Assembly (NCBI GenBank): GCA_014905635.1
Contig: CM026547.1
Span: 1,674,001 to 1,738,000, forward strand
DNA: 64,000 nt
Source: Scenedesmus sp. PABB004
Taxonomy: Eukaryota
Reading direction: 5' to 3'
In this document: positions 1-61,554 of the stretch, piece by piece
Layout: each line of letters opens with the position of its first letter
Numbering within the stretch: position 1 is the stretch's first letter
Made by a program: the position numbers and the translations under genes
Notes under the pieces: generated by a model
Told to the model about the DNA's origin: nothing
The model's input: the letters and a program-made list of their open reading frames with translations, nothing else
Database searches by the model: none

Positions 1-958
1 GGCGCGGCGGGCGGCGGGCGGCGGGCGGCCGGCGGTGGTGCTCAGGGGCGCGCGTGGCGATGCGCGCGCGCAGCACGCAGAGCGCGCGCGCGCGCGCCTC
101 GAAGTGCCGCGCGAGCAGCGCCGCGCCGGCGTCGGTGAAGAGCGCGGTGTTGAACAGCAGGCACGCGCGCAGTGCCGCCGGCGGCGCGCCGCGCGGCGCG
201 GGGCTGAGCAGCAGGGCGACGTCGAGCGCCGCGGCGGCGGCCGCCGCGGCGGCGCCGTCGGCGCCCCACGCCACGCCCGCCTGGAAGAGCGGGTGGGCCA
301 TGGAGCTCTCGGGCGACAGGCCCGCGGCGGCGCAGATGTCTGCCACGCTCATGCGCGCGTGCGGCGCCACGGCGAGCAGGCGCGCGTGCAGCGCGTGCGC
401 GTGGCCGGCGAGCGCGTCGCCGCCGCCCAGCGGCGGGCAGCACAGCGGCACGAGCGGCTCGTCGCCGCCGGCCGCGAGCAGCGCGGCCGCGCGGGGCATG
501 AGCAGCGCTGAGGGCTGCGCGCCGAGCGTGATGACCTCTTGGCCGCTCACGCGCACCAGGTAGGCCTGCGCGTGAGCGCGCGCGCGTGCGGGAGGGGGAG
601 AGGAAGGCGGGCGGGGCGGGCGGCGCGTGGGCGAGAGAGAACGAGGGAGCGAGCGCCGCGCGGGCGCGGGCCGCGTGCGCGCACGTGAAACGCCGCCAGC
701 AGCGCGACGCCCGCGGTCGTGCCGGCGGCGTCGGGCAGATCCAGCCAGAGCGCGTCGGGCAGGCGGCCCAGCGCGACGCGGCCGCGGCGCGCGGTGAGCG
801 AGGCCTGCGTGCGCGCCTGCGGGGCAGCGTGGTCAATGCGCGCGCGCTGTGCGGTGCCGCGGCGCCGCCCCCGCCCGGCGGTGCCGCCGCCGCACCTTAT
901 CGAGCACGAGGTCGAGCGCCTGGGGCGCGCCCGCGAGGTGCTCCTCCCAGAACACCAT
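1..958 (-). CDS. NRPS-like / Lys2-like multidomain enzyme, 5' part (C-terminal half of a condensation domain); continues beyond the window start
   Basis: Exons 958-896, 816-685 and 565-98 splice in frame: MVFWEEHLAGAPQALDLVLDK|ARTQASL...VALLAAFH|AYLVRVSGQEVITLG...HPLFQAGVAW...LDVALLL...LLFNTALFTDAGAALLARHFE. This matches C-domain motifs (YW..QLAG.P..L.LP.D, LLAAF..LL.R.SGQ.D, HPLFQV, EYNT.LF). Confidence 0.75.
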
Positions 959-1223
959 CGCGCGCGGCCCTGCGGTCGGCGCGGGCGGCGGAGCGGGACC
1001 GGTCCCGCTCGCGCGCCGCGCCCGGCGGCCGCCCCGCAGACGGCCCTGGGTGGCGCGACCGCTCAAAACGCGGCACCTCGACCCCTCGCGAGCCGCACCT
1101 GGGCCTCGCGGCGCGAGGGGAGGGCAGGGGCGGGGCGGCAAACGGCGGCGCCGATCCCGGCTCGGCAGGGGCGCGCTGCCGCTCGGCGAGCGCGGAGAGG
1201 GTGAGGCGGAGGTGCGCGCGCGG

Positions 1224-1358: not shown

Positions 1359-2447
1359 TCACTCGCCCTCGCGCCAGCCCACGGCGGCGGCGGTCGCCGC
1401 CCACAGGTCCGCCGCGAGCCGCTCGTCCAGCGCGAGCCGCTGGGCGCGGCGTGGCGCGGCGCGGCGAGGCAGCAGCACGCCAGGTCAGGTCGCACGCGGG
1501 GCGGCGCCAGCTGCGGCGCCTGCTGCCGCCGCCTGCTCGCACCCCGCCGCAGCGCGCGCCCGCCGCGCGGCGCACCGGCGGCGCCATGGGCTTGCAGTCG
1601 TGCAGCATCAGCGGCACGGGCGCGTCGGGGCTGAGCTCGGGGCTCGTGGCCGCCCACACCACCACCTGTGCGCCCTGCGCCGGCGTCCTGCCGAGCACCG
1701 GCGCGATGGCCTGAAACAGCCACGCGAACAACGGCGGCACCGACCTGCGGCGAGGCGCGCGAGCGAGGCGCTCGCACCCGCCGCGGGCGGCGGCGACGCG
1801 CGGCGCGGCCGTGCGGCGCGCGGCCGTGCGGCGCGGCGGGCGCGCCTGAAGATGGTGGTGTTGACAAAGCCGGGGCTGCAGCTCGTGGCGATGATGCCGC
1901 GGCCCGCGAGCCGCCGCTGCAGCTCCGCAGAAAACAGCACGTTGGCGAGCTTGGAGTCCGCATACGGCGCGGACCACCAGCGACCCCCCCGCACGCGGCT
2001 GTCCACGACCGCGAGGCACCCGAAGCGCGCCGCGCGGCTGGCGACGGTGACGACGCGGCTGCCGCGGCGCATCTCGGGCAGAAGGAGGTTGGTAAGCAGG
2101 AAAGGGCCGTCGTGATTGATTTCCAATGTTGACGGCCCACCCGGGTCGCCAGCGAGCACGCCCGCGTTGTTCACCAGCACCGCCAGCGGGCGGCGCCGCG
2201 ACCGCAACTCCGCGCGCTGCGACGCCGCGAAGCGCCGTATCGACGCGCCCGACGCCAGGTCGAGCGAGGCGCAGCGGCAGCTCCCCGGCAGCCGCCGGGC
2301 GTCGAGCTCCGCCGCCGCCGCGGCGCACCGTTCGGCGCTGCGGCAGGCGAGCACCACCTCCGCGCCCGCGGCCATCAGCCCCGCGGCGACCTCCTTGCCC
2401 AGGCCCGCGTTGGCCCCCGTCACGATGCACACATCGCCCGGCTGCAT
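1359..2447 (-). CDS. Short-chain dehydrogenase/reductase (retinol dehydrogenase-like), 3 exons
   Basis: VCIVTGANAGLGKE (TGxxxGxG), LVNNAGV, YADSKLANVLFSAELQRR (YxxxK), SPGFVNT; ends AAVGWREGE-TGA. Confidence 0.9.
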
Positions 2448-2739
2448 CTCCCGAGCGCGCCCCGCTGCTGGTGTGGGGCGGCGGCGCTGCTGGCGGCGGG
2501 CGCTCGGAGCTGGTGACGGTGTTGGCGTGCTGCGCTGGTGACGAGATCGGTGTTGGAGTGTGTCGAAATGGGTGTCGGCGTGCCGAGCGGGCGGCGAGGT
2601 CGGCCGTGCGGGTGAGCGCCAGCCGCCGTTGCGCCGCCACAGCCGCTCGTCGCGACGCACCCATGTGATCCGTTTTCCGTCTCATCGCTGCGCTCTCCAC
2701 CCCTGATCCGCGATGCTGCCTCCGCGCCATCCCGCGCGC

Positions 2740-5545
2740 ATGGACGCGCTCAATACGCTGGCGGCCGAGATGCAGGTGCACGGCGGCGGCCGCCGCCGCC
2801 GGGGCGGGCGCGCGCTGCTGCGGGCCGCCGCGATGGCACGCCGGCGGTGCCGTGAAATGCCGGGTGGCGCCACACCCTCGCGCGCCGGCCGCGTGCGGCG
2901 GCGGCGCCGGCAGCAGCAGCGGCGAGGAAGCGGCGTTGGCGCCGCCTGCGCGCCGGCCCGCCCCGGGCTCAGGCCCGCCCGGGACGTTGCAAGCCTCGCC
3001 TGCCCACCGTCAGGCGGGCCGCGGCAGCAGCCCCGCCGCAGCAGGTCGCCCCACTGCTGCTTGAGTGTGACCGGCGCCGCCGCGCCTCCCCGCAGGCGGC
3101 CATGGCCGACGAGGCCGTGCTGGACCACCGCCTGCGGCACACGCGCAGCTTCAACGACGTGCAGGCCGTGGACGCGGGCCACGCGGGTGGGCGCGCGCGC
3201 GGGCGCGCAGGGCCGCGACGACGGCGCGCGCGGGCCGCCGCAGCGGCGCCGCACGGGCGGCCGACCGCTGCCCGCCCGTTGGCCGCGGCGGCGCCGCGGC
3301 GCAGGCGTGATCCCGCCGCTGCAGAAGATCCGCAAGACCAACCTGAGCGAGCAGCTGTTTGCGGGGTCGCTCAAGGCGGTGCAGGAGGACGAGAACGAGG
3401 TGGCTGAGGTCGTCATCGTCTGCGAGCCCGAGGGCGCCACGCTCACCATGGGCGGCCTGCACCCGCGGTGCGCCCGCGGCGGCCGCGCGGCGGCCGCGTG
3501 TCGCGCGGCGCGGCGGCCGCGTGTCGCGCGGCGCGGCTGAGCGGCGGCGCCGCGCAGGGGCTCCCTGTATGAGCGGCCCGTCAACATCGACTCGGCCAAG
3601 GCCCAGCACGCCGCCTTCCGCGAGGTGCGCGCCCTGCGCTGGGGGAGGGGGGGGCTGCGCGCCCCGCGCCGGCGGGGCTGCGCGGGCGGCGCCGGCGGGG
3701 CGCGGGGGCCTGCGCGGGCGGCGCCGGCGGGGGCGCGGGGGCCTGCAGGGGCGCGGGGGCCTGCACGGGCGCCCCCGCCCAGCCGCCCCCGCCGCCCCCG
3801 CCGCGCGTGCGCGGCCGCGCGGCAGGTGCTGCGCGCGCACGGCGTGCGCGTGCTGACGGTGCGCGAGATCCTCGCGTTTGGCGTGGAGGAGCGCATGGGC
3901 GCGCGCGTGGAGCTGGAGGAGCTCGCCGCCGACACGCTGACCTACCGGATCGCCGACGGTGCGCGCGCCCGCGCTCACGCGCCGCTCCCATGCCGCGCCC
4001 TTCGCGCCCCGCGCTCACGCGCCCCGCCGCGTGCGCCAGGCCACGACCCCGCCGACCTGAGCGAGGGCGACCGCTTCTACCTGAGCGACGACTACAAGCG
4101 CAGCGTCGTCAGCGCAATGAGCACGAGCCAGCTCATCGAGATCTGCCTCATCAACCCCACCGTCACGCTGCTGCCCAGCTTCAGGCGCGCGGCACCCGCG
4201 GCGCGCGCCGGCGCGCGCCGGCGCGCGGGGCTCGGCGCGGCCCCGCGCCGCGCCGGCCGCGGCCCCGCGCCGACGCGCCGCCGGCGGCGCGCCCGACGCA
4301 GGGACACGGGCCTGACGGCGAGCTACACGTTCGAGCCGCTCTCCAACCTCGTGTACACGCGGGACCAGCAGATCACGACCTGCCGCGGCATCGTCATGGG
4401 CCGCCTGCGCAGCCAGCAGCGCCAGAAGGAGGTGGAGCTCATGTCGTACTGCTTCAACAAGCTCGGTGCGTGGCGCCGCACACACGCAGCGGCGGCGGCG
4501 CACCCCGTGGCCCCGCCACCAACCGACCTGCTGCCGCCGCCGCCAACCCGCCGCCGCCGCCGCCGCCGCCGCCGCGTCGCAGGCCTGCCGGTCGCGGGGC
4601 GCATCGTTGAGCCGGGCTTCCTCGAGGGCGGCGACTTCTTCCCCATGGGCCAGGACCTCGCGCTCGTGGGCGTGGGCCTGCGCAGCAACGTGGAGGCGTG
4701 CGAGCAGCTCATGGCGCGCGACCTGCTCGGCACGCGCCGCCTCGGCGTCGTGCGGGACGACTTTGACCGCGACCAGGCGCGCGCCGCGCGCGGCCGCGCC
4801 CCGCCCGCGCCGCCGGCGCCGACGCCGCCGCCTGCGCGCGCGTGGCGGCGCCGCAGGACCGCATGCACCTGGACTGCGTGTTCAGCGTGCTGGGCGAGCG
4901 CTGCTGCATCATGCTGGAGACGATCATGGGCGCCGACAGCCCGACGCGCCGCCTCGTGGACGAGTATGTGCGCGACCCGGCGACCAAGAAGTACTCACTC
5001 GCGCGGTGAGCCGCTGCCACGCGTCGCCGCGCTGCTCCGCGCCGCGCCCGCCCGCAGCGGCCGGCCGGCGGCCGGCGGCGTCCGCGGCGGCGCGCGCCCG
5101 CCCGAGCGCCGCCCGCCGCCGCCGGCGCCGGCGCCGCGTGGGCGCAGGGAGGGCGTCGAGTTTGCCGAGTTTGTTCGCGGCGAGGGCTTTTCGATCATCC
5201 CCATCAAGCACGAGCACCAGCTCGCGTACGCCTGCAACGTGCTCAACCTGGGCAAGGGCCGCATCATCAGCGTGCACGCGCCGAGCGCGCGCGAGATCGT
5301 GAAGCACGAGGCCTTCACCGGCGACGTGCAGGCGCGCGCGCCGCGCCGCTGCAGCGCCGCCGCGCCGCCGCGCCGCCGCCGGCTGCTGACCGCCGCCACT
5401 GCTGCCGCGGTCATCATCGCCGCCGCAGGTGATTGACTTCAGCAGCGTGACGTCGATGTACGGCAGCGTGCACTGCGCGAGCCAGGTCGTGCGGCGCGTG
5501 CCCGTCCGCTTCGTCGCGGACGGCGCCGCGCCCGAGGACAACTGA
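2740..5545 (+). CDS. ADI1: Arginine deiminase (amidinotransferase superfamily), ~11 exons
   Basis: Catalytic motifs NLVYTRDQ, LEGGDFF, RMHLDCVFS and YGSVHCASQV are present after splicing; ends DGAAPEDN-TGA. Confidence 0.9.
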
Positions 5546-6121
5546 GGCCCGCCCCGGCGGCGCGCGGGGAATGCTCTGGCGCACGCGCGCGCGCACGCGC
5601 GCGCGCGCAGGCCGGCCGCGCGGGAGCGGGCCGCCGCGCCTTGTGTGCGGGGTCCCGCCCGCCGCGCGGCGGCCGCAGGGGGCGGGCCGCAGCGGCGGCG
5701 CCCACCCTCGTGGGCGCGCGCCCTGGCGGACGCTGGGGGAGGGGCGGGGGCTGTGCGTGTGAAGGGAGGAACGACCTGCGCCAGGGGGACGGGGGGCGGC
5801 GGGCCAGGAAATCGAGCAAAACCGAGCGTCACCCGCGCGCCGCGCGTCGCCGGGCGCCTGACCGCCCGATCGGCGGCGACCGCGCCACCGAGCGCAGTTG
5901 CGTTGGTGAGTTGGTGCGCTGCAGCCGCTGCGCGCACCGGCACCCGTGCCTTGCTGCGGCGGCGGGCGACGACCTCCGGAAGCGCGCGGCCGCCGGCGCG
6001 CGCCGCATCCAATTGCCTCCCCACGGCAGCCCCACATCCCCGCCCGCACGCTCCGCCCGCTCTGCCCTCTCCGCCGTCCTTCCGCCCGTCCACGGCGCGC
6101 CGTTCGCAGCCGCAGAGCAGC

Positions 6122-7854: not shown

Positions 7855-7860
7855 CTTTCT
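7855..7860 (+). promoter_or_regulatory. Putative 5' oligopyrimidine (TOP-like) start of RPL41
   Basis: CTTTCT about 30 nt upstream of the ribosomal protein ATG. Confidence 0.35.
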
Positions 7861-7886
7861 GAATCGTTCAGAAGCAGCCCGTCAAC

Positions 7887-9125: not shown

Positions 9126-12100
9126 ATGGGGCTCTTCGCCAAGCGCGCGCCGCCGGCGGCGGAGGCCGCTGCGGGCGAGGGCGGCGCCGCCGGGGGCGGC
9201 GCCGCCGTCGAGCGCGGCGCGTACACGGTGGACGAGCATCTCCTCAAGCCGCACGAGGTGGCGGCGCGCTTCGGCACGTCCATCGACGCCGCCAACGTCG
9301 GCGCCAGCCGCGGCCTCACCGCCGCGCAGGTGCGGCGGCCGCCAGCGGCGCCGGGCGGTCAACGGCCGCTGCTCGCTCGCCGGCGCGCGCCGCACACACA
9401 CCCGCCGCGCCCGCCGCGACCGCGCGCAGGTGGCCGAGGCGCGCAAGGCGCACGGCCTGAACCAGCTCACGCCGCCCAAGACGACGCCGGAGATCGTCAA
9501 GTTCCTGCTGCAGTTCACCAACCCGCTCATGGCGCTGCTGCTCGTGGCGGGCGCGCTCACGTTCATGGCCTACGCCATCCAGTCGCCGCGCGACAAGAAC
9601 AACGCCATCCTCGCCGCCGCGCTCATCATCGTCGTCACGCTGACCTGCATCATGTCCTACTGGCAGGAGCGCTCCGCAAGCAACGTCATGGGTGCGCGCG
9701 CCGCCGCCGCGCGGACGCGGCCGCGGCCGCACCGCCGCGCCGTCGCACTGCCGCGCCGCCGCCGCGCCCCACGCCCCGCCCGCGCCGCCGCCGCGCGCGC
9801 AGCGTCGCTGAAGCGCATGATGCCCAACAAGTGCACCGTCATGCGCGACGGCGTGGAGCAGAAGGTCGACGCGGCGGAGCTCGTGCCGGGCGACCTCGTG
9901 CGCCTCTACATCGGCGACCGCGTGCCCGCCGACATCCGCATCATCGAGACCGCCGACCTCAAGGTGCCGCCGCCGCTGGCCCCGCCGCCGCCCCCGCCGC
10001 TGGCCCCGCCGACCCGCGGAACCGCGGGGCCGCCGCCGACCCGCGCCGCCCGCCGCTCGCGCGCGGCGCCGCAGGTGGAGTGCTCGAGCCTGACGGGCGA
10101 GAGCGACCTGGTGCCGGCGAGCGTGGAGGCCAAGCACGAGACGCCCGCGGAGGCGCGCAACCTGGTGTTTATGAGCAGCCTCGCGATGAACGGCGAGGGC
10201 CGCGGCATCGTCGTGCGCACGGGCGACCAGACCATGATCGGCAAGATCGCCACGCTCGCGACCGACACGCACACGCACCGCTCCACGCTGCAGGCGCGCG
10301 CATGGGGGCGGCGCGCGGGGGCAGGCGCGCGCGCGGCGCCGCGCGGCGCCAGCTGCGCGCCGCCGACGACCGCGCGCCGCGCCGCGCCGCGCCGCGCAGG
10401 TCGAGGTGCACCGCCTCGTGTGGTTTGTGGGCGCGCTCGCGTTCACCGTCGCGCTCATCCTGTTTGTGGTGCGCGCCGCGCCAGCGCGCGTGCGCGCGCG
10501 CGTGCGTCGCGTGTTGGCGCTGCGGGCGCGACGCTCGCGGGCGCGGAGCTCACGCGCCGGGGCCGTGCTGGGCCGCGGCAGGTGGGCCTGATCCGCAAGA
10601 CCAACCCGCTCGTCGCGTTTGTCAACGGCTTCATCCTGGTCATCGTGGCCAACGTGCCCGAGGCGCGCGCCGCGCGCGGCCGCCGGCGCCCCTGCCCGCG
10701 CCCGGCCCCGCGCCGCGCCGCGCCGCGCCGCGCCGCGCCGCGCCGGCGCCCGCCCACGTGCGGGGCACGCGCGCGCAGGGCCTGCCCGCGACGGTGACGT
10801 CGCTGCTGAGCCTCACGGCGCTGCGGCTGCGCGACCGGCGCGTGCTGATCAAGCGCACCGACATCATCGAGAACCTCGGCGTCGCGACGATCATCGCCAG
10901 CGACAAGACCGGCACGCTCACGCAGAACAAGATGACGGTCGAAAACATCTTCTGCAACAGCGTGCGCGCGCGGACCTGTCGCCGCGCGCGGGCCGCCGCC
11001 GCCGCCGCCGCACGCGCCCAGCCAGCCGCCCGCGCCGCCCTGACGCGGACCCCCGCCGCGCGCCGCCGCCGCGTCGCCGCGCAGGAGCTGCACCGCGGCG
11101 CGACCTTCCAGCCGCCGCCGTCGGCGCCGCTCGCGTCGCTGGAGCGCGCGTCGACGCTCGCCAAGATCTCGCTCGCGCGGCGCAGCAACCTCGGCCGCGC
11201 GAGCGCCGCGCTCGGCCGCCTCTCGCGCATCACGTCGGGCGGGCTCGGCCGCACGAGCGCGCTCGCGCGCGTCTCGCACGACCCCGCGACCCAGATGGCG
11301 GTCGGCCGCACGGGGCGCCCGCGCGGCGACGGCTCGTTCGAGCTGGAGGGCGTCAGCAGCGACGGCAAGCCCCCGGCGCAGCCCCTGCCGCCGATGCAGG
11401 AGGAGGCGCCGCGCATCGGCACGTTCATGGTGCAGTCGTTCGCGGAGCTCTCCGCAATCACCTGGGAGCGCAGCAGCGCGCTCACCAAGCTGCTCACCAT
11501 CGCGGTCGTCGCCAACAAGGCCAAGTTCACCATTGGCGAGGACAACGACGCGGGTGCGGCGCGCGCGGCGCGGCCTCGGGCGCGGCCTCGGGCGCGGCGG
11601 GGCGCGGCGCGGCGCGGCGCGGCGCGGCGTGCGCTGCCCGCGCGCGCTCACGCGCGCGCACGCCGGCGCCGCCGTCCAGGCAAGCAGCGCGACCACACGG
11701 CCATCACGGTGCCCATGTTCCAGGGCGGCGAGGACACGCGGCAGATCCTGGGCGACGCCACCGACAGCGGCCTGCTGCGCTACTGCGACCGCCTCGCGCC
11801 CTCGGGCCTCGTGCGCATGGCGTACAAGAAGGTGCGGCGCGCACCGCGCGGGCTGCGCGACCGCCGGGCGCAGCCTTGGCGGCCGGCGTCGCGCGCCGGC
11901 CCGACGCCGCGCCGCGCACCGCCGCGCCGGCCGGCGGTGCAGGTCTTTGACATTCCCTTCAACTCTGCCAACAAGTGGAGCCTCGCGGTCACGAGCTGCC
12001 CCGGCGACGCGGCGCACCAGCTGGTGCTCATGAAGGGCGCGCCCGAGATCGTGCTCACCAAGTGCAGCCACCACCTGCGCGACGGCGCCGAGGCGCCCAT

Positions 12101-13570
12101 CGACGAGGCCTTCCGGGGCACCATGAACGCCGCGTACGAGCGCTGCGGCTTCATGGGCGAGCGCGTGATCGGGTTTGCCTACAAGAAGATCCCCGCGCGC
12201 AGGTGGGGAGGCGGGCGGCGCGGCGCGCGCGCAGCCGGGGCGGCTGAGCGGCCGGGCGGCGCGCGACGGGCGGCGCGCGGCGCGGCGCGGCGCGGCCGCG
12301 CGCGCCGCCCACGGCTGCGCCGCGGCGGGCACCGGTGCTGTGGCCGCAGCGTGGAGTCGTACCACACCGACGGCGCGCCGACGGAGGGCCTCGTGTTCAT
12401 GGGCCTCATCAGCCTGGTCGACCCGCCGCGCCCGGGCGTGCTCGACGCGGTCAACAAGTGAGCGGGGCGCGCGGCGCGCGTGTGTGGGGTGGGTGCGGTT
12501 TGGTTGCTGGCTCCCGGCGTGCTGACGCGGCCACGGCGGCGTGGCATGGTGCGGCGGGGCGCCGCAGGTGCCGCAGCGCGGGCATCCGCGTGGCCATGGT
12601 CACCGGCGACCACCCGCTCACGGCGGAGGCCATCGCGCGCAAGGTGGGCATCGTCACGCTGCCCACGCCGCGCGAGGTCGCGGCCGAGGCGGGCGTGCCG
12701 GAGGGCTCGATCGAGATCACCGACGAGCGCGTGGGCGCGGTCGTGATCACCGGCACGCAGCTCAGGCGCGGCCGCCGCGGCGCCCGCGCCGCGCGCTCGC
12801 CGTCCGCCCGCCGCCCGCGCTCAGCGCCGCCCTCCTTCACGCGCGCGCGCGGCCTCAGGGCGCTGACGAGCGAGGACGACTGGGACGACATCCTCACCAC
12901 GCCCGAGATCGTGTTTGCGCGCACGAGCCCGCAGCAGAAGCTGCAGATCGTGGAGAACCTGCAGCGCCTCGGCGAGGTCGTCGCGGTCACGGGCGACGGC
13001 GTGAACGACAGCCCCGCGCTCAAGCGCGCCCAGATCGGCGTCGCCATGGGCAAGGGCGGCTCGGGTGAGCGCGGGCGCGCGCGGCGGCGGCTGCGGCGGC
13101 GCGCGCCTGGGCCCGGGGCCCGGGGCCTGGGCTGCGCGCCGGCCCTCCAATGCCGCGCGCACCGCGCTCCGCCACCCGCGGCCCCGCAGACGTCGCGCGC
13201 GACGCCGCCGACATTGTGCTCATGGACGACGAGTTCCCCAGCATCGTAGCGGCGATCGAGGAGGGCCGCGTGATCTACGACAACCTCAAGAAGACCATCG
13301 CCTACACCCTCGCGCACGCCGTGCCAGAGGCGAGCCCGCGCCGCCGCCGCGGTTGCCGCCGCGCAGCACCGCGCAGCACCGTGCAGCGCCGCGGCCGCGG
13401 CCGCCCGCCCACGCGCACCGCGTCCCCCGCCGCGCGCCAGGTGTGGCCGCTGTTCCTCGCGCTCGTGCTCAACTTCCCGCTCGGCCTGGGCGGGCTGCTC
13501 ATCCTGTCCATCGACCTCCTCACCGAGCAGGGCCCCGCGATCAGCCTCGCGGTGCGGGCCGCCGCAGGCA

Positions 13571-13603
<33 letters not shown>

Positions 13604-15266: not shown

Positions 15267-15289
15267 GCCTGCCTGCGAGGCCGCCGCCG

Positions 15290-17664: not shown

Positions 17665-18349
17665 ATGGGAACCGCCGCCAGCGCGCCCGCGGCGGCGCCG
17701 GAGCAGCTGACCGTGCAGTTTGACGTGCGACGGGCGCCGCCGCTGCCGCGCGCGCGCCGCCGCCAGCGCGCGCGAGCGCGGCCGCGACCGCACGGGCGCA
17801 GGTTTCCTGCCGCATACCGGTGGAGGAGATCATCGCCATATCGGAGCAGGCGGGCGCGGCCATCATGGCCATCTACAACAGCGCGGTGCGCCGCCGCGGC
17901 CAGCCGCGCCGGCGCCCGCCCGCCCGCCAGCTCGGCGGCGGCCGCGGCGGCGGCCCAGGCGCGCGGCCGCGGCCCGCGCGCCGCAGGACCACGGCGTCGA
18001 GTACAAGGGCGACGACTCGCCGCTGACCAAGGCGGACACGGAGAGCAACCGCGTGATCTGCGAGGGCCTGCAGCGCGTGTCGCCGCACGTGCCCATCATC
18101 AGCGAGGAGACGCGCGCGCTGCCGTACGACATCCGCAAGGCGCGGCCGCGGCCGCGGCAGCGGGCGGCGCCGAGGCGGCGGGGGCGTGCCAGCGGCGGCA
18201 CGGGCGGCGGCGGCACGGGCGGCGGCGGCGGCGGCCCGGCGCGCCCTGACGCGCCGGGCCCGACGCGCCGGCGCGCCCGCCGCGCGGCGCGCGCCTGCGG
18301 CGTCGCGCAGCACTACCAGTACTGCTGGGTGGTCGACCCGCTGGACGGG

Positions 18350-18389
<40 letters not shown>

Positions 18390-19396
18390 TGATCGGCCTC
18401 GTGCAGGTGCGACACACACGCAGGGCCGCGCGGCCGGCCCGCACGCACCCGCGCGCCGCGGGGCGGGGGCCGAGCCAGAGCGGCGGCGGCGTGCGCCGCC
18501 CGCGCGCGCGCAGGGCTCGACGCCGGTGCTGGGCGTGGTGCACGTGCCCGTGAGCGGCAAGACCTACTTTGCGGTGGAGGGCAAGGGCGCGTACGTGCGC
18601 GGCAGGGACGGCAGCACCGCGCCGATCCGGGCCAAGGAGTTTGCGGTCGGCGAGAAGGGACTCATCCTGGTCGGCTCCGCCAGCCACGGCGGCGGCGACG
18701 GTGCGCGCGCGGCGGCCGGCGGCGGCCGGCGGCGCGGCCCGGGGGCCCGGCGTGGGGAGGCCAGCGGCGCGCGCGCGCGGGCGGGCGGGTGCTGACGCGG
18801 CGCGCGCGGCCGTGCGTGTGCGTGTGCGCACGCGCGCTGCAGCGATCAAGGACTTCACGGAGCTCTTTGACTCGCCGACGTTCAAGTCGCTTGGCAGCAG
18901 CCTCAAGCTGCTCATGGTCGCGGAGGGCGAGGCCCACGTCTACCCCAGGCGCGGCAGCGACCGCGGCGCGGCCGCGGCGCGCGGGGCGGGCCGGCGCACG
19001 CCCGGCCGCCCCGGCGGCCGGCGCCGAGCGCGGGCGGCGCCGCGCCGCGTGTCGCGCAGGCTGGCGCCGACGATGGAGTGGGACACCGCCGCGGCCGACA
19101 TCATCGTGAAGGAGGCCGGCGGCGTGGTGGTGCAGGCGGGGCGCGTCAGCGGCAAGGGCGAGCTGCTGGAGGACTGGAAGGTGTGCGGCGCGGCCGGCCA
19201 GCGCGCGCGCCGCGGCCACAGCGCGCGCGCGCGCCTTAGCTCGCGCGCGCGCGTGCGTGGCGGCGGCTCCGAGCGCGGCTGCGCCGCTGCGCGCGCCGCG
19301 CGGCAGGACGTTGTGGTGAAGGAGCTGCCGGTGGAGTACAACAAGGAGGACCTGCTCAACCCGGCCTTTGTCGTGTGGGGCAAGCGCCGCAGCTAG
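17665..19396 (+). CDS. cysQ: 3'(2'),5'-bisphosphate nucleotidase, CysQ-type (inositol monophosphatase family), 8 exons
   Basis: [77 protein letters not shown]. Confidence 0.92.
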
Positions 19397-41042: not shown

Positions 41043-44000
41043 ATGCCGCTGCTCCATGGTGTCCTCCAGGTGGAGGTGCACCGCGCGACCGACCTGCCGA
41101 CCACGGCGCGCATCCAGGCGGTCGGGTTCATGAAGCGCTACGTGTGCTGCGGCATGCTGCCCGACCTCGCCGGCAGCGTCGACCCCTACCTCTGCCTCGA
41201 CGTCGGCGCGACGAGACGCCTGCGCACGCGCTTCATCCAGGTGGGCGCCCGCCGCGGCGAGCGGCGCCGCGCCGCGCCGCGCCCCCGCGCCGCGCCGCGC
41301 CGCGCCGCTCACCACTGCGGCGCCGCCCGCCCGCCCGCCTGTGTGCTTGCTTCGTCCAGGGCACGCACAACCCGGACTGGAACGAAAAGCATGAGGTCTA
41401 CGTGGCGGACGAGGCGGACACGCTGAAGGTGGAGGTCAAGGTGCGGCGGCGCGCGCGGGGCATGGACAGCCGCGGCGCAGCAGCGGGCGCCGCGGGCGCG
41501 GGCGGCGCCGGCGCTGGGCAGCAGCGGCGAGGGCAGCAGCAGCAACTGCTGCGGCGGCGGCAGCGGCGGCGGCGGCGGCAGCGGTAGTGGCGGGCGGCGG
41601 CAGCGGCCGGCGCGGCAGCGGGCGGGCTGGCTCGCGGCACGCTGCGGCGAGGCCGGCGCCGACGCTCGCGGTTGCGCGCGCCGGGCGCCGCAGGACGCGG
41701 ACGTCGTGGGCGCCGACTTTCTGGGGCAGGCGGTGATCCCTGTGGCGGAGATCATCGGCGGCAAGCCCTGGGACAAGTGGCTCGACCTCACAGACCTCCA
41801 GGTGCGCCGCCGCCGCGTGCGGGGGCTCGGCGCCGGCGCCGCGGCGGCGTGGCTGCGTCGCGCGGCCGTGCGGCGGGGGCGTCACACGCGGCCGCGCCGC
41901 TGCGCCGTAGGGCAAGCCCATGATGGGCAAGGACCACACCGGCGACCCCGTGCCCAGCCGCGTGCACATGAGCATCCTCTTCCAGCCCGTGGGCAGCGAG
42001 GTGCGCCGCGCGTCTCCAGGAGCCGCGCCCGGCCGGCCGGCGTGGCGCGGCGCTCGGCGCGCGCCGGGCGCCGCGCGCCCGCCGCCGCTCCCGGCGCCGC
42101 CGCGCGAGCGCGCGCCGCACACCGCGTACCGCGCGCGCACTTGCAGGACGCGGGGCTCAAGGCGGGCGAGGTGCCGCGCGTGTACTTCCCGCTGCGTGGC
42201 GGCAACCGCGTGACGCTCTACCACGACGCCGTGTGCACGCCGGGGCCGGTGCCGGGCGTGGAGGCGAGCGGCGGGCTGTACAGCGAGTCGAGCTGCTGGG
42301 ACGACCTCTACGCCGCCATCAACGACGCGCAGCGGTGCGCCGCGCCGCGCGCCGGCTGCACACGCGGGCCGCGCGGGCGCAGTGGCGGCCCCCGCGGCCC
42401 GCCGCCGCGTCGCGCCGCGCGGCCGCCCACTCCGCGACACCGCCCGCCGCTGCCGGCGCGTGCGGGCAGGTTCATCTGGATCACCGGCTGGAGCGTGTGG
42501 ACCTCCACGCAGCTGCAGCGCACGCCCGCGGCGGCGGCCGACTCGCCGACGCTCGGCGAGCTGCTGGTCGCCAAGGCGGCGGCGGGCGTGAACGTGCTGA
42601 TGCTGGTCTGGGACGACGCGACCAACAACTCCGGGTTGCACAGTGGCGTCATGGCCACACACGACCAGGAGACGCACGCATACTTCAAGGACACCGAGGT
42701 CACCTGCGTGCTCTGCCCCCGCCAGGGCGGCGACGAGGACAGCTACCTCCAGGCGCGCCGCCGGCGGCCGCCCGCGCGCTCGCCCGCGCGCGCGCGCCGC
42801 GTGGTGGGGCCCCGCGCACCGCGCCCCCCTCGGCCCTGCGCTCAGGCGCGGCGCGTGCCGCCGCCGCCGCCGCCGCCGGTGCCGCCGCCGCCGGTGCCGC
42901 CGCCGGGGAACGCAGAAGATGCAGCGCGGCAACATGTTCACGCACCACCAGAAGACGGTCATTCTGGACACGCCCATGCCCTCCGACCAGGTCACCGCCG
43001 GGCCCGACAGCCAGGCCTACACCAAGCGCGTCCTCGCGTTTGTCGGCGGCCTGGACCTCACCAACGGTGCGCAGCGCGACGAGGGCGCCGCGCCCGCCGC
43101 CGCCGGGCCGCCCGCCCCGCGCCTTGCGCCCGCCGACGCGCGCGCCGCCCTGCCCGCGCGTCTCGCGGGCGTCAGGCCGCTACGACTTCCACCACCACCC
43201 GCTGTTTGACACGTGCGCCGAGGGCGGCCCGCACGCGGCGGACCTGTACCAGGGCTGCATCGACGGTGCGCCACCAGCGACACCGCCACCGCCACCGCCT
43301 GCGCCCGCGGCAGCCCGCTGTGCGCGCCTGGCGGCCGCTCCCGCGCCGGCGCCCTGCGCTGACGGCCCCGCCCGCGGCGCGGCGCGCAGGCTTTGACTGC
43401 ACCAAGCCCGGCCCGCGCGAGCCGTGGCACGACATCCACGCCAAGGTCGAGGGCCCCGCGGCCATGGACGTGGCCATCAACTGTGCGCGGCCGCGGGCGG
43501 CGCGGCCGCGCGCCTGGGCGGCCGCGCGCGCGCGCGCGCCAGTGCTATGCACGCCCCCACGCCACCGCCGCTGCCGCCGCCGCGGGGTGCGCGTGCCGTG
43601 CCGCAGTCATGGAGCGGTGGATCAAGCAGGCGCCCAAGCTGGACCTGCACAAGCTGAGCTCGATCGACGACCACGGCGACATCCTGCTGCCCGAGGTGCT
43701 GCGCATGTTTGCGGTGCGCGCCCGACCTCGCCGCCCGCGCGGCCGCCCGCCCGCACGGCCGCCCGGCCGCCGCGCCGCCGCCGCCCGCGCGCGCGCCGCC
43801 GCGCGCCCACCCGCACCCGCACCCCCCTCCCCCGCGCCGCGCAGTCCAAGCGCGCGCAGGTGAAGGGTCGCGTGAAGGGCCACATCGACCTGCGCATGGA
43901 GGTCATTAAGTCCCACGACCAGGAGGTGGAGCTGCGCGACGTGCCGCCCGGTGAGCGCTGGGAGGTGCAGCTCTTCCGCACGATCGACTCCGACTCGGCC

Positions 44001-45965
44001 GCCGGCTTCCCCGGGTCGTCCGAGGGCGCGTTCGAGGCGGGGCTCAGCGTCGGCAAGGGCAAGGTGCGGCGCCGCGCCCCGCGCCCGCCGCGCCGGCGCG
44101 TCCGCGCCAGGCCTGTGCACGACCACCGGCCGACCACGCCGCCGCCGCCGCTGTGCGTCTGCGTGTGTGTGTGTGTGTGACTCTCTCTCCCTGGTGGTGC
44201 CGCCGTCACCATCAGATCGTGGACGCGAGCATCCACCGCGCCTACATCAACCTCATCCGCCGCGCCAAGCGCTACCTCTACCTGGAGAACCAGTACTTCC
44301 TCGGCAGCAGGCGCGCCACGCACACACCGCGGGGCGCGCGCGCGCGGCTGGCACAGCCCTGCGCGCCTCGCTCACGGGCTGCGCGTCGAGAGCGGGGCCG
44401 GCGCGCCGCGCGCCGCGGCCCGCGTGACCGTGCTGCCGCCGCCGCTTGCGCCGCCGCAGCCACCTGTGGGACAGCGACCAGGACAGCAACTGCATCAACC
44501 TCGTGCCCGCCGAGATCGCGCTCAAGATCTGCGCCAAGATCAAGGCGCGCCGCCGCCGCAGCGGGCGCGCCCGCGCCGCCGCCGCCGCGCCCGCGCCGCC
44601 CCAAACCCTAAAGTGCGCCCGCCGCCGCGCGCCGCGTGCCGCGCAGGCGGGCGAGCCGTTCTGCGTGTACGTCGTGATCCCGATGTACCCGGAGGGCATC
44701 CCCACGAGCGGCAGCGTGCAGGCGATCCTGCACTATGAGACCAAGACGCGGCAGATGATGTACAAGAGAATCGCCGCGGCGATCGAGGAGGCGGGCCTGA
44801 AGGGCCAGGCGCACCCGCAGGACTACCTGCAGTTCTTCTGCCTCGGCAAGCGCGAGGCGGAGCCCGTGTGCGAGGTGACGCGCCCGCGCGCGCGCTGCTG
44901 CGGGGAGCGGCGGGGCCGCCGTGCGGCGGGGCCGCCGCGCGGCCGGCGCTGAACCCTGCCTCTGCTCTGACTGCCTGCCCGCCGGCGCGCGGCGCAGCTG
45001 CCGGCCGACGGCGAGGTGCCGCAGGTGACGGCGGAGGGCGGCGACGGCTGGGTGCCGATGGCCAACGGCGGCGACCTCGCGGCCGCGGCCGCCGACGCCG
45101 CGGCGGCGCCGCCCGGCGGGGACGTCGCGCGCGCGCCCAGCCGCGCGGCGAGCCGGCGCGACCTCACCACCTGCCAGGCGCGCGCCACGGCGGCGCGGCG
45201 GTTCATGATCTACGTCCACAGGCGCGCCGCGCAGCGCGCCGCGCAGCGCGCCGCGCAGCGCGCCGCACGGCGCTGCCACGCCGCGCCGCCGTGCCGCGCT
45301 GCCGCGCACCGCCGCGGCCGGCGGGCCAGGCCGACGCTGGCCGCCGCTGGCCGCCGCTGCCGCAATTGCGTCGTCGCAGCAAGCTGATGATCGTTGACGA
45401 CGAGTACGTGGTCGTGGGCAGCGCCAACATCAACCAGCGCTCCCTCGACGGCAAGCGCGACAGCGAGATCTGCATCGGCGCCTTCCAGTCGGGCCACACG
45501 CTCGGCAGCGCGGGGGGCCCGCTGCCGCGCGGCCAGGTCGCGGGCTTCCGCAAGGTGCTCTGGGGGGAGCACGTCAAGGTGCGGCCCGCGCCGCCGCGCC
45601 GGCGTGGAGGCTCCCATGGGGAGCGCGCAGGGCGCGGCGCCGCGCGGCGCGGGCAGAGCGCGCAGGGCGGGCGGCGGCGCGCGGCTGCTCACGCGCGCGC
45701 CGCGCAGGACCTGCCGGCCGAGGCGGACGACCCGAGCGACGTGCGCTGCATGCGCCTGCTCTCGCGGCTGGGCGCCGAGAACTGGGCGGCGTACGTCGGC
45801 CCCGACAACGAGCCGCTGCCGCACGGGCACCTCATGACCTACCCCACCTGGTGCGACGCCGACGGCAACGTGGGCCCCCTGCCCGACTGCGAGGAGGTCC
45901 CCGACCTGGGCGGCAAGATCACGGGCACAAAGAGCATGATGTTGCCGCCCATCCTCACCACCTGA
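41043..45965 (+). CDS. PLD: C2-domain phospholipase D (plant PLD alpha/delta-like), many exons
   Basis: LLHGVLQVEV, DPY, NPDWNE (C2 domain); IWITGWSV, LVWDD, THHQKTVILD (HKD1), FVGGLDL.NGRYD, PREPWHDIH, LYLENQYFLG, IYVHS|KLMIVDD (HKD2), GSANINQRSLDG.RDSEI, LPPILTT-TGA. Confidence 0.93.
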
Positions 45966-49148: not shown

Positions 49149-52100
49149 TCAGGGCACGACCGTGGCCTTGACGGGGATGGCGGTGAGCTCGGGCGCGTAG
49201 AAGCCGTGCTTGGCGCGCGCCTTCTGGCGGCGGTAGCGGATGAGCGGCAGCAGGTGGTGGCTGAGGTGCTCCAGGCCCATCTGGTCCTTCACGTACTCGC
49301 CCTGGCGCGGCAGCGGCGGCGGAGGGTGTGGGCGGGCGCGCGCGGGCCAGCGGCGGCCCCGCGTGCGCGCGCCCCACGGGCGGCCCGCGGGCGCGCGCTG
49401 GGCGCTGGGCGCCGGCGCCGCACCTGCTCGCAGTCGGCGGCCTGGAAGGCCTCGTGGTGCAGCAGGTCCATGCCGTGCGTGAGCTCCCAGTCGAGCTTCT
49501 TGTAGAGGATGGGGTCCATGTGTGCGTACGCAGACTGGGGCAGGTCAAACTCGATGTGTTGCTGCGCGCACAGGGGTTGCGGCGCGGCGGCGCAGGCGGG
49601 CGGGGTGAGGCGGCAGCTTGGCGCGGCGCACGGGCGGGGCACAGCGCGTAGGGCGGGGCCGCGCTGCGCTGCCCCGCGTGGCGCGCGCCTGGATGTGGCG
49701 GCTCTGCTGCTGCAGCGTGAGCAGCCAGAGCTCCTCCTCCTCCGCCTCGACCAGCTTGGCCTCCTCGGCGTCGAGCTCGGCCATCTCCATCTCAAAGCGC
49801 TCCGCGATCGCCTCGGGCAGCTCCAGCTCCTCAAACGCCACGTTGGTGGGGTCTGCCAGGAACGCGAGCTGCTTGTCCAGCACATACTCCTGGTACGCGT
49901 GACCCGCCGCGCCGGCGCGCTGCGCCTTGAGCGCAGCGACCGCGCCCGCGACCTCCGCGCCGTGCTGCGCCATGCGCTGCAGCGGCGTCAGCGGCGCGCG
50001 CTGTGCGGCGAGCAGGCCGTCGGCCGAGCCGGACAGCTTCTGCGGGCGCGCAGCGCAGGGGCGCGGCGCGGGCGGGCGGGGGTGGGCGCCTGCAGCGCGG
50101 CGGGCGGCGCGCGCGGGCGCCTGCAGCGCGGCGGGCAGCGCGCGCGTCGCGTCGCGTCGCCGCTGCACCGTGAGCTGGTCGGCGAGCTCCGCCTCCTCCC
50201 GCTCGTAGCGCTCCGCCAGCTTCATGCCCTCCGCGTACATGTACCTGCGCGGCGGACGCGCACGCGCACGCGGACGCGGCGGCAGGCAGGCGGGCACGCG
50301 TGGGCGCGGGCGGCGCAGCACGCGCGGCGGCGGCGCGGGCGCGCGCGCGCGCGGGCGGGCGGCGCGTGGCGCAGCGCGCCGCGCGCCGCACCGGTCGGGC
50401 GTGTACAGGTGCTCCGTGAGCGTGCGCGCCTCCTCGCTCTTCAGGCGGTTGCTCGCGCCCTCGGGCGTGAGCGTGGGGCCGAGCAGCTGCTCCAGCGCCC
50501 AGCCCTTGTCCTGCAGCTTGGTCGCGAGCTCCACCGCCTCGTTGTCCTGCGCCGGCGCGGCGTGGCGCGTGAGCGGGCCCCGGCGCGCGTGGGCGGGGCG
50601 CCGCCGCGGGGCGCGGGCCCCGGCGCCGCCCCGCGCGCGGCTGGCTCGCCCCCGCCCCCGCCCTCGCCCGCTCGGCCGCGGCGCGACGGCGCACCAGCTC
50701 GGAGGCGGGGAACATGTCGCGGACCTCCTGGCGGCCGCGGCGGAGGAAGAAGCCGTCCATGGCGGTGACGCGCGAGAGGCGCTCCCCGTACGTCGCGGGG
50801 CCGCGGCCCACCGCCTCCACGAGGCCGTCGTACTTGGTGCCCACGTCCTGGGGGGGGGGGGAGGGTGGAGGTGAGGTGAGGTGTGGGGTGGGGCGGGGCG
50901 GGTGAGGTGGGGTGAGGCGCGCGCGCGCGAGCGAGCGCGCGAGCAGACGAGTCGCTGGAGGGGAGGTCGCGCGAGCGCGGCGCGGCGCGTGGGCGGCTGC
51001 GGGCGCGGCGGCTGCAGCGGCGCACCTCGTGCTTGCTCGCGAGCAGCGCGTCGCGCTCCTTGAGTGGCACGAGCGCCTGCTCCGGCGTGGACAGCACGCG
51101 CTTGGCCCACAGTTTCACCCAGCGCGCGTGCACCGCGGCGCGGCGCGCCGAGAGGCGCCGCGCCGCGTCGGCGGCAGACATGAACTTGAACCCGGGCGCC
51201 GGCTTGCCGTCGACCTCCACGTACGAGCGCTCGCTCACCGCCTTCTCCAGCAGCGCCTGCGCGGCGCGGCGGCGCGGGCCGCGCGGGGGCGGCGCGGTGA
51301 GGGCCGCGGCGCAGGGGCGCGCCGGGGCGCTGCGCGCGCGCCGCGGCCGACCGCAGCGCCTGCTCGTGCGCGCCCTCCGGGCAGCTCCCTCCTCTGCTGC
51401 TGCCGCGCGCGCGGCGCGTCACCGCCGCCGCCGCCGCCGCCGGCCGCACCTTGAGGTCGGCGCCGTCGCCGCCCATGGTCTGCCCCAGCGCCGTGAGCTG
51501 CTGCGTGACCTGCGCCGGCAGCGCCGGCGTGCGCAGCTTGGCGCGCGGAGTCATGGCCGCAAAGTAGGCGTCCGTCACGCCCGTGAGCGCGGCCAGCTCC
51601 ACGGGCTTGCCCAGCTCCCACTGCGGCACCGGCAGCTTGGGGAAGGGCTGCGGCGCGGCGTGCGGCGCGCGGCGCGGGCGCGTGAGCGCGGGGCGCGTGA
51701 GTGCGGCCGCCCCCGCCCTCGCCTGCCATCCCGCCGGCGCTGGCGCTGCCCGCCGCCGCCTGCGCGCTGCGGTGCGGGGGGCGTCACCTTGAACTCCTTC
51801 TCCTTGATGCCCTCGGCCGCGAGCTCGCGCCGCGCGTCCCACCACATGCCCTTGACCGCGACCGCCTCGCTCGCGCGCTTGGAGAGCACGCTGTCAAAGA
51901 ACTTGGGCACCTCGCCTGCGCGCAGCGCGGCGCGGGCGTGGGGCACCGCCGCCGCCGCCGCTGCCGCCGCTGCCGCGCGCGCCCTGCCGCCGCTGCCGCG
52001 GCCGCCCGCTGCCGCTGCTGCTGCGATGGCACGCACCGGCCTTGAGGCCGAACTTCTTGAAGTTGGGGATGGGCTTGTCCAGGTCCTCAAACGTGCGGGG

Positions 52101-59300: not shown

Positions 59301-61554
59301 CTGGTGGAGCTGCTCAGGCGCGGCGCGCCCCGCGCCGCAGCCGCGCCGCGCCCCGCGCCGCAGCCGCGCCGCGCCCCGCGCCGCAGCCGCGCCGCGCGCG
59401 GAGCTGCGGCCGGCCCGCGCGCGCCTCCTGCGGCTCCTGCGGCCGCGCCCGCCGCCGGGCCGCCGACGCCCGCGCCGGCGGCCGCGCGCGCAGGAGCGAG
59501 GAGGCGGCGCTCATGGCCGCGCAGAAGGAGGCCGAGGCGGCGAGCACGTCGGGGCGCCTGGCCAGCACGCTGCCGGCGGAGGCGCGCGGGCCGCTGGCGC
59601 GCGTCAACGGCGCCGCCGACGCCGCGGTCGCGACGAGCAGCGCGAGCATCGTGCAGCGCGTATGGTGCGACGTGCTGCGCCTGGCCACGGGCGTCGGTGG
59701 CGGCGCCGCGCCCGGCGGCGGGCCCGCCACGCCCGGCGGCAGCAGCGCCGCGGAGGCGGCGGCCACCATGCGGCGGCGGGCCCTGGACCTCATCGAGGTG
59801 CGCGGGCAGGCCGCGCTGGCGCGCTGGCGCCTCGCGCTGCCGCCGGCGCCCCCCCCCCCCCGCCCCTGAGCGCCGCACCGCGCCCCGGCCCCCAGGTGGT
59901 GCTGCGCGGCGGCCTGGTCGGCCCCTGGACGGCGGTGCCGGCGCTCGTCGCGCAGCTGACCGACGACGCGCTCGACACGCGCGCCGCTGCGCTCAAGGTG
60001 CCGCGCCCCCCGCCCCGCCGCTGCGCGCCCCGCCGCCGCGCTCCCCCAAGACCACATGCACGCTTCCTCCCCCTCATACTCGCCCACCCCCCCCCCCCAC
60101 ACACACACATGCACGCACACGCCAGGTGTTGAAGGCGGCGTGTGAGAAGTGGCCAGACTACGTCTCCAACCAGCTCGCCCCCGGCGTGCTGCTCGCGTAC
60201 GACTTCCAGGCGCGCCTCTGGGCCGCAAAGCACCCCGGCACGCACCTGCCCAAGAGTGAGCAAGCCCCTCGGCCCGCCGGCGCGGCGGCGCACGCGCCAG
60301 CCCGCTCGCCAGGCGCGCCCGCACGCCGGCCCGCGCACTCTGCCCCCCACACACCTCTCACACACACGCGCGCGCGCGCGCAACGACCCCCGCCGTGCAG
60401 CGCCGCGCCCCGAGGTGCTGGAGGGCCTCGCCGCGCTGTACGGCCAGGTCGTCGCGGCGACGCCGCAGGCGCGCGGCCGCTTCCTGGCGCACCTGCTGCG
60501 GCCGCTCGTGTCGGCGGTCAGCGCGGCCGAGCCCGCCGCCGCAGCGGGGGAGGACCTGCACCGCCTCGCCTTTGTCGCGCACGTCGCGGCGGCGCTGCCG
60601 CTGCGGCGCGGCGACGAGCCGCTCGCGCTGCTGCACGCGATCAACGGCGCGGTCAGCCGCCACGCGGCAGAGGTCGCCGACCGGCTGCGCGCCGCGCTCG
60701 TGGCGGCGGGGCTGAGGCGCCGGCTGGGCGACGACGGCGACGACGGCGACGGCGACGCCGGCGCCGCGGGCGCGGGCGGCGGCGACGGCGCCGGCGACGG
60801 CGACGCGCGCGGCGCGCTGCCGCTGCCCCACCCGGCGGGCCTGCTGGGCGCGGTCAAGGCGGGCCTCGCGCTGAGCATGCTGCTGGTGCTTAAGCAGTAC
60901 CTCATGGCCGCCTACGGCCTCAGCGACGAGCGCGTGGCGGGCTTTGAGCTGCGCGGCGAGCGCTTCCGCGGCGAGGCCAAGGCGCTCGTGAGCAGGGACA
61001 AGCGCCTGCCGCCGTTTGGGCTGTCCGTCGTCGACCTGCGCGCGCTCGGCGACGCCACGGGCGAGCTGCTCGCGGGCGCGCACACGACGCTGCGCGGCCT
61101 GCTGGACAACGACGCCGCCAACTACAGGCGCGCGGCGCGCCGCGGCGCGGGCCGCCGCGCAGCGCCGGGGGCGCCGCCGCCGCCGCGCGTGCGCGACCCC
61201 ACGCGCCAACGCTGCGCGCCGCGCGCCACGGGCCGCAGGGAGGCGGCGGTGCTGGCGGCGCTGGACGACCGCGACGACGAGGAGGCGGGCCTCGATGCGG
61301 CCAACCTCGGCGCCACGCCCGCGGCCGGCGGCGCCGCGCCCGGCGGCGGGCTGGTGGTGTACAGCAAGGAGGCGGCCAAGAAGGGCAGCCGCGGGCGCGG
61401 CAGGGCCGGCGGCGGCAGCGCGGGCAAGCGCGGCGGCGGCCGGGGCCGCGGCGGGGGGCGCGGGCGCGGGCGCAAGCGCCAGCGCGGCAGCGACGACGAT
61501 TCCGACGACGAGGACTGGGGGGCCGGGCCGCCCTCCAAGCGCGAGCTGTTCTAG
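53302..61554 (+). CDS. SCC2: Cohesin loader subunit Scc2/Nipped-B-like (HEAT repeats), many exons
   Basis: N-terminal LPTLTTS..LPFPLP, DLL...LPEWPAA..LL, VRTKVFKCLGLVVEAD..L, LEDDSVAVREAALDLV, D.GLSVRKRAIR.LWD.C, RGGLVGPWTAVPALVA, LAFVAHVAAALP..DEPL; basic/acidic tail ending PPSKRELF-TAG. Confidence 0.88.

Follow-up and report, generated by a model that had tools for sequence, protein, structure and literature searches.

GC-AG introns in the window

About one intron in six begins with GC instead of GT in a 64,000-nt stretch of the green alga Scenedesmus sp. PABB004 (GenBank assembly GCA_014905635.1, contig CM026547.1, positions 1,674,001 to 1,738,000), hereafter called the window, whose base composition is 79.2% GC. 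In all, we identified 21 GC-AG introns amongst the 126 curated introns of 19 genes (16.7%; Wilson confidence interval 11-24%), the other 105 being GT-AG; this rate refers to the 64-kb window rather than to the whole genome, and splicing is here deduced from gene structure. The excess of GC-AG introns is a real feature of the window. It is about 14 times the plant mean of 1.2% (p = 6e-18) and about twice the 8.5% that tops a set of 121 annotated plant and algal genomes (p = 0.002); the comparison with 8.5% holds for the 18 homology-supported GC introns alone (p = 0.02). The rate is the highest that we found for any green alga or plant, and probably a record for green plants. A literature search found no GC-AG frequency for the Scenedesmaceae or for the strain; subscription papers, bioRxiv and most other supplements were outside its scope and could hold figures.

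Gene coordinates were obtained with a seeded, self-trained gene finder and then curated by hand, the gene finder serving for coordinates only and its false GC donors in low-complexity exons being removed manually. Some undercounting is possible, in that GC introns readable in frame within poorly conserved genes may have escaped. Thirteen of the GC introns are supported by full-length homologue alignment, five by Pfam continuity or an intronless orthologue, and three by reading frame and consensus only. The GC introns are listed below, with coordinates counted from the first letter of the window; L001 and the like are our numbers for loci from metagenomes, and P0001 is the public gene model of the ATPase.

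1745..1845, minus strand: short-chain dehydrogenase (SDR), phase 2; collinear with the intronless SDR homologues of L001 and L002 (34-39% identity)
4185..4301, plus strand: arginine deiminase (ADI), phase 2; homologue alignment; no GT inside
4777..4856, plus strand: ADI, phase 0; homologue alignment; position common to eight other loci (three GC, five GT)
5332..5428, plus strand: ADI, phase 0; homologue alignment; using the GT 6 nt upstream loses the conserved VQ
10294..10399, plus strand: P-type ATPase, phase 0; homologue alignment; no GT inside
10663..10778, plus strand: ATPase, interrupting PE/GL; homologue alignment
12766..12858, plus strand: ATPase, phase 2; homologue alignment; unspliced in P0001
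13330..13440, plus strand: ATPase (gag/GCGAGC); homologue alignment; unspliced in P0001
14411..14546, plus strand: ATPase, phase 0; homologue alignment
18140..18310, plus strand: CysQ-like gene (inositol-monophosphatase family); PF00459 continuity within one position
18949..19059, plus strand: CysQ-like gene, phase 2; PF00459 positions continuous
32184..32298, plus strand: malate dehydrogenase (MDH; cag/GCACGC); PF00056 continuous; no GT inside
34491..34631, plus strand: ribosome recycling factor (RRF); PF01765 position 88 followed by 89; no GT inside
38363..38500, minus strand: glutaredoxin/DUF547 gene; frame and consensus only
42753..42915, plus strand: phospholipase D (PLD); homologue alignment
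44311..44459, plus strand: PLD, phase 2, within YFLGS/SHLW; homologue alignment
44545..44646, plus strand: PLD, phase 0; homologue alignment
45222..45379, plus strand: PLD, cutting the second HKD motif within its Ser codon; homologue alignment
49562..49688, minus strand: ASA1 (ATP-synthase-associated protein); homologue alignment
59318..59493, plus strand: SCC2/Nipped-B; frame and consensus only; no GT inside; retention shifts the frame
61128..61238, plus strand: SCC2; frame and consensus only; retention adds 37 low-complexity residues in frame
80..97, minus strand: probable 22nd GC donor (gag/GCGCGC, at 97), at the end of exon 3 in an unnamed gene (958-98); frame and consensus only, acceptor unconfirmed, uncounted
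566..60400: comparison set, the 105 GT-AG introns found in these 19 genes

GC introns make up three of the 10 introns in ADI, five of 18 in the ATPase, two of seven in the CysQ-like gene, 1/5 in MDH, 1/4 in RRF, 4/16 in PLD, 1/12 in ASA1, 1/5 in the glutaredoxin/DUF547 gene, one of two in SDR and 2/23 in SCC2. There are none in CPN20 (four introns), RPL41 (one), the WAPL-like gene (six), LHC (five), the DPH2-like gene (two), the gene at 958 (two) and three unnamed genes (four together); RPL41, LHC and CysQ are what we take these genes to be from their translations. The 126 introns have a median length of 119 nt and the GC introns one of 116 nt, with the same length distribution as the GT introns (p = 0.96), and the acceptor is CAG in 125 of the 126 introns, including all 21 GC introns.

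The original prediction, that GC-AG introns are unusually frequent in this DNA, is thus borne out by gene structure. All 12 GC donors that it had named were found where it had placed them, each as AG/GC; its count for the ATPase was right, its "two to three of 10" for ADI becomes three (donors 4185, 4777 and 5332), and GC introns do split PE/GL in the ATPase and H-S/K in PLD.

Gene structure calls for GC donors

As judged from homologue alignments and reading frames, the GC donors are not accounted for by GT donors close by, by sliding of the junction or by miscalled bases. A spliced aligner, given homologues from other species only and the same cost for every donor starting with G, recovered to the exact base each of the 13 GC donors in ADI, ATPase, PLD and ASA1. 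Alignment restricted to GT lost 22-75 score units at each of these junctions, the GT-only alternatives losing residues (VQ of GDVQVIDF; VPE of VPEGL) or harming the HKD motif. The aligner's false GC donors occurred at three positions, all in unconserved stretches, so that unsupported GC calls need care. Pfam positions run on unbroken at three junctions (RRF, MDH and the second of the CysQ-like gene) and to within one position at the first CysQ junction; no useful PDB or Pfam match was found for the second SDR exon. Five GC introns (donors 4185, 10294, 32184, 34491 and 59318) contain no GT at all, and for none of the GC introns is there a sequence-equivalent junction shift yielding GT-AG or AT-AC. 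The glutaredoxin/DUF547 intron (donor 38500) is less sure, because a GT located 18 nt downstream would add six residues.

It is very unlikely, then, that the C at the second intron position (+2) was miscalled, or that the transcripts are cut at GT sites close by or retain the intron. In favour of such an artefact are the aligner's three false donors, the apparent frameshifts in the assembly (MDH transit peptide, DPH2), the retention of two of the five ATPase GC introns in P0001, and the fact that the +2 base is known from the assembly consensus only. Against it, and besides the alignment losses and the introns devoid of GT, miscalls would not be confined to sites after AG and ahead of a G at +5, and a 32% base-calling error confined to AG donors is not credible. 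In the exons of four genes, each of the 21 invariant Val codons that follow an AG still begins with GT and none of the 54 AG/GCN codons falls at an invariant Val, while a change of the T-to-C type (C at the second codon base) is seen at three of 491 invariant hydrophobic positions. The public models (P0001 for the ATPase, P0024 for ADI) splice six of the eight ADI and ATPase GC introns identically, an agreement between gene models, and the same donors are seen in independent loci. Short contigs from DNA run X1 (share 0.06), about 97-98% alike, cover parts of 2600-19500; one extends 28 bases beyond donor 4185 and another five bases beyond donor 14411, which is not enough to bridge the introns.

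Anatomy of the donor

An exonic AG precedes all 21 GC donors, as the original prediction had claimed, versus 45 of the 105 GT donors (Fisher p = 2e-7). None of the 60 donors without exonic AG is GC, where about 10 would be expected under independence, and the GC share amounts to 21/66 (32%) behind AG and 16/33 behind CAG. The exons at GC donors end in CAG (16), AAG (three) or GAG (two), and the donor hexamers are GCGCGC (15), GCGCGG (four), GCGAGC and GCACGC (one each). GT donors, likewise as predicted, are mostly GTGCGC or GTGCGG (60/105), with GTGAGT occurring twice. Sorting by the presence of an exonic AG, of T at +2 and of G at +5 gives 39 donors with all three, 59 with T and G only, 21 with AG and G only (the GC donors), six with AG and T only, and one with T only; that is, 39 keep all three, 86 have lost one and a single donor has lost two.

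Donor positions were scored against Markov backgrounds built from intron bodies. Position +3 is a purine in 125 of the 126 introns (G in 124), and +5 is G in 119 (52-60 expected) and in every GC donor. At +4, C occurs in 95 introns, against a context-based expectation of 66-73, and 20 of the 21 GC donors have it; A occurs in 20 introns (7-13 expected), an approximately threefold enrichment over the order-3 background (20 versus 7), and is commoner without exonic AG (15/60 versus 5/66; p = 0.013). This excess of +4 A at donors lacking the exonic AG resembles the trade-off between U5 and U6 at donors described in PMC10581693. Positions +6 to +10 follow the intron background; all GC donors have C or G at +6, and GCGCGC is itself frequent in these introns (297 of 11,870 hexamers). 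The mean match to the published U1-complementary consensus is 4.86 of nine positions for GC donors and 4.95 for GT donors. The features of U2-type GC-AG donors, exonic AG, +3 purine and +5 G, are each present in 21/21; the near-perfect consensus of the mammalian type was not found at the other intronic positions, at which GT donors are equally loose. With its +3 purine, its +5 G and a +6 that follows the background, the donor reads as a canonical signal filtered through GC-rich DNA. The original prediction of altered 5' splice-site recognition has partial support: reliance on the exonic AG is borne out, the data can be explained with no variant U1 or U6, and the GCGC tail of the donor is mostly base composition. 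That the exonic AG is read by U1 and U5 is established (PMC2490688, PMC10581693).

A branch-like motif, CT[GC]AC, is found in five of the 21 GC introns and in 38 of 125 scored introns overall; it is loose, with a peak 20-50 nt upstream of the acceptor. Throughout the intron set there is no T-rich pyrimidine tract, and acceptors are mostly CGCAG after GC repeats. SCC2 has a tandem acceptor, CAGCAG, at 58048-58053, of which both AGs preserve the frame. The minor (U12-type) donor consensus is strict, and with donors of the form GYGCG a U12-type intron is ruled out. Chlorophyta are described in PMC11347168 as having neither minor introns nor minor snRNAs.

Base composition and the cost of a C at +2

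The GC-AG introns are probably, from what composition and donor statistics suggest, U2-type introns in which the +2 T was turned into C by GC pressure and is tolerated behind an exonic AG. Intron bodies consist of 47.7% C and 5.4% T (C/T = 8.8). They are 89% G+C, and in 14 gene models 96.4% of third codon positions are occupied by G or C, values close to the ceiling for nuclear genomes. Mutation bias or GC-biased gene conversion would steadily drive +2 to C. A donor here draws on three supports, namely AG at the exon end, T at +2 and G at +5; it can do without any one of them but almost never without two, which confines GC to donors that have both the exonic AG and +5 G. An unchanged U1 snRNA may accept the +2 mismatch through pairing to the AG of the exon and to the G at +1, +3 and +5, the exon end perhaps being held by loop 1 of U5. 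Selection against +2 C at AG sites would be weak (fitted log-odds cost of about 2.7), and the identical cost at a lower C/T pressure would account for the few percent of GC donors seen in less GC-rich genomes.

We compared the ADI gene across other eukaryotes. An ADI alignment led to 75 metagenome loci, of which first 42 were aligned and then 34 (one per apparent species, plus the intronless ones), and four near-duplicates were removed; the final set comprises 27 loci with 110 introns, 93 of which pass a flank filter (17 dropped: 12 GT, four GC, one GG). Eight of the 93 confident introns have GC donors, all behind AG, and they are distributed as 1/43 below 55% intron GC, 1/24 at 55-68% and 6/26 above 68% (2/67 below versus 6/26 above 68%; p = 0.005). 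The intron at window position 4777 is found at the same codon and phase in eight loci, with GC in three and GT in five, which shows GT/GC switching at an old intron. In a quick ADI tree, the window gene groups with Tetradesmus obliquus (SH-aLRT 98); L056, with GC at two of nine donors, lies among chlorophycean proteins, and the other loci with GC donors fall outside named clades, L045 far outside. L066 (67% GC; sister loci L064-L070) has two confident GC donors and a probable third in seven ADI introns, the latter following TG at a position where other loci have GT, and its group is a candidate for another genome rich in GC-AG introns. SDR and ADI form a head-to-head pair both in the window (1359-5545) and in L001 (249-3490), and L002 has an SDR match upstream of ADI on the opposite strand. 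In both L001 (76% GC) and L002 (71% GC) ADI is intronless, so that some GC-rich relatives have lost these introns and L001 affords no comparison of donors.

In our model, logit(GC share of AG donors) = ln(C/T) - S, where S is the cost of a +2 C; it treats intron composition as neutral and stationary and the loci as independent, neither of which is strictly true. The fitted S is 2.9 (2.4-3.5) for the window, 2.0 (1.3-2.9) for the other ADI loci and 2.7 (2.3-3.2) combined. A logistic fit on ln(C/T) rejects a slope of 0 (p = 0.002) and is compatible with a slope of 1 (p = 0.27). The cost estimated from the ADI loci predicts 54% GC among the AG donors of the window, against the 32% seen; the alga is therefore not unusually permissive. 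One fitted cost together with intron C/T accounts for both the window and the ADI loci, and an altered U1 or U6 is thus not needed. Land-plant introns have a C/T of about 0.37. At this ratio, S = 2.7 gives 1.3% GC-AG overall, near the published 1.2%. The suggested rule is that the GC share of AG-preceded donors follows intron C/T at a roughly constant cost; if it is true, the textbook 1% would be a mutation-selection balance, and Emiliania (a haptophyte alga) and the dinoflagellates would be the real exceptions.

Several observations weigh against this account. Inside 16 gene models there are 28 unused AG/GC[GA][CA]G sites, and cryptic GC donors are not avoided in exons (15 seen versus 13.7 expected from synonymous shuffling in 15 genes); other cues must therefore guide site choice, among which may be the intron length of about 120 nt, the CAG acceptor and composition. 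For AG/GT[GA][CA]G, there are 30 used sites and two exonic decoys. The comparison base is one gene, ADI, with eight GC events in related loci. Some of the dropped GC calls follow TG (L066 position 407, L045 position 92), so that other species may obey the AG rule less strictly. The GC donors of the window match only about five of nine consensus positions, unlike those of mammals, which are reported to lie in near-perfect consensus and to be gained independently of local GC (Churbanov 2008, PMC2490688). Emiliania, with 65% GC and 56-65% GC donors, is far above what the cost predicts. Finally, annotated GC-AG rates are 0.03-0.7% in Monoraphidium neglectum, Gonium, Volvox and Chlorella variabilis (PMC6310983), and M. 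neglectum and C. variabilis stay below 1% despite a GC content of 65-67% (PMC6310983), although annotation bias is the likely reason for such low figures.

Other explanations

A changed spliceosome seems rather unlikely to us; here a variant U1 or U6, or an altered U1-C, LUC7, PRP8 or METTL16, would have made +2 partly degenerate and GYGCG the true consensus. The poor match of the GC donors to the canonical signal, the abundant +4 C and the almost invariant +3 G would fit it; an snRNA change was raised, and left unsettled, for the GTGCGTG donors of Ostreococcus (Irimia and Roy, PMC2483917), and Emiliania proves that much higher rates can evolve (PMC4028052). Against it, GC is absent from the 60 donors without exonic AG, so +2 T still matters; A keeps its roughly threefold enrichment at +4, and +6 is background; and the cost in other loci predicts more GC donors than the window has. 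Shifts of the donor consensus in yeasts are reported to have come without changes in U1 or U6, both invariant through these switches (PMC10581693). A search with Rfam for snRNAs gave no match in the window or in 12 loci. A re-tuning of U1, U6 or a U1-associated protein to GYGCG, leaving +2 nearly neutral behind CAG, where 16 of 33 donors are GC, would be a surprise to us; if true, the alga would represent a stage on the way to the Emiliania state at which green algae had arrived independently, and base composition would be reshaping the spliceosome in one of the most GC-rich nuclear genomes.

Introners, that is, recent transposon-type insertions whose own ends or target sites supplied the GC donor, are largely refuted as the source and most improbable. 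Introner elements with GT and GC donors are known from Pelagomonas (10.1101/2021.10.25.465678), the GC introns have narrow lengths, and the first 21 bases are identical at donors 4777 and 10663. On the other side, blastn found 12 weak intron-intron matches, none of them a GC-GC pair, neither terminal inverted repeats (6.95 versus 6.49 nt) nor junction repeats are in excess, GC and GT introns do not differ in length, and the intron at 4777 has the same position in eight other loci. As to novelty of position, one of the three ADI GC positions is thus common to other loci, and the other two (4185 and 5332) were not seen in the ADI loci compared.

Selection of GC donors as purposely weak sites that permit regulated retention of introns or alternative splicing, to which GC donors are tied in animals and Arabidopsis (PMC2490688), which pervasive retention in Emiliania (PMC4028052) would parallel and for which eight of the 21 GC introns could be read through in frame, has next to no likelihood here, as the GC introns break catalytic motifs of housekeeping enzymes, retention shifts the frame in 13 of 21, and composition alone accounts for their number.

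Public gene models and other observations

The exon at 11085-11552 is 100% identical to P0001 (Atpalpha, Scenedesmus sp. PABB004), and an ADI exon is likewise identical to P0024. For the ATPase (9126-14693), P0001 carries 194 additional residues translated from intron sequence, of which GC introns contribute 68; it retains two GC and three GT introns and moves one GT donor. At 2713-7422, P0024 ("CPN20", 661 amino acids) joins ADI and CPN20, which are two separate genes in homologues. Gene models of GC-rich algae need GC donors and RNA evidence.

An inverted repeat of 529 nt, 98% alike, lies at 26537-27065 and 30616-31144 (plus 27084-27125 and 30555-30596); it brackets the WAPL-like gene, duplicates the MDH promoter and first exon, and is a recent inversion, a duplication or an assembly feature. 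Apparent frameshifts (31209-31260, about 16740, 20500-21100 and 35140-36300) occur in the MDH transit peptide, in the DPH2-like gene and, by eye, in two unnamed genes; they are probably indel errors of the assembly.

Comparison with known systems

The GC-AG introns of the window share with the U2-type GC-AG introns of plants, animals and fungi (PMC6310983, PMC2490688) the same ends, a strong compensating exonic AG and GT/GC switching at orthologous introns; they differ in their rate, 17% in place of the plant average of 1.2% (Pucker and Brockington 2018, PMC6310983), and in an intronic side of GCGCG instead of a near-perfect consensus. Raised rates are annotated in Ostreococcus tauri (8.5%, the top of the 121), Micractinium conductrix (7.0%), Micromonas pusilla (5.8%) and Chlorella sorokiniana (5.7%; PMC6310983 supplement). 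Like the window, several of these green algae are GC-rich and all are well above 1%; the window is two to three times higher, their figures being annotations of uneven quality. The assembly of Scenedesmus sp. PABB004 has 39.8 Mb and 78.5% GC, most Sphaeropleales having about 56% (PMC12571836); across kingdoms, genome GC is reported to correlate weakly with splice-site GC (PMC7072748).

Ostreococcus lucimarinus (Irimia and Roy 2008, PMC2483917), with its GTGCGTG donors, resembles the window in the GTGCG core and the preference for CGCAG acceptors, but has few introns, a strict branch point and an annotated GC-AG rate of 0.3%, whereas our alga is intron-rich with a weak branch motif. Dinoflagellate introns with GC and GA donors (PMC12584245, PMC5029490) and pelagophyte introners combine frequent GC donors with AG acceptors, as in the window, which unlike them has no GA donors, inverted repeats at intron ends or intron families.

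High GC-AG usage in a GC-rich alga has a published precedent in Emiliania huxleyi, for which 56-65% GC and 4% GA donors are reported, with 13 junctions checked by reverse-transcription PCR, and GC content was already proposed as the cause (Feldmesser 2014, PMC4028052). Both are GC-rich algae with intact AG acceptors and with gene predictions that miss GC donors, and the donors of Emiliania are constitutive. No GC majority exists in the window (21 GC versus 105 GT), nor do GA or GG donors have support in the curated set. Emiliania is a haptophyte with a GC majority verified on transcripts, while the window, read through gene structure, belongs to a green alga with 17% GC-AG introns and a strict AG rule.

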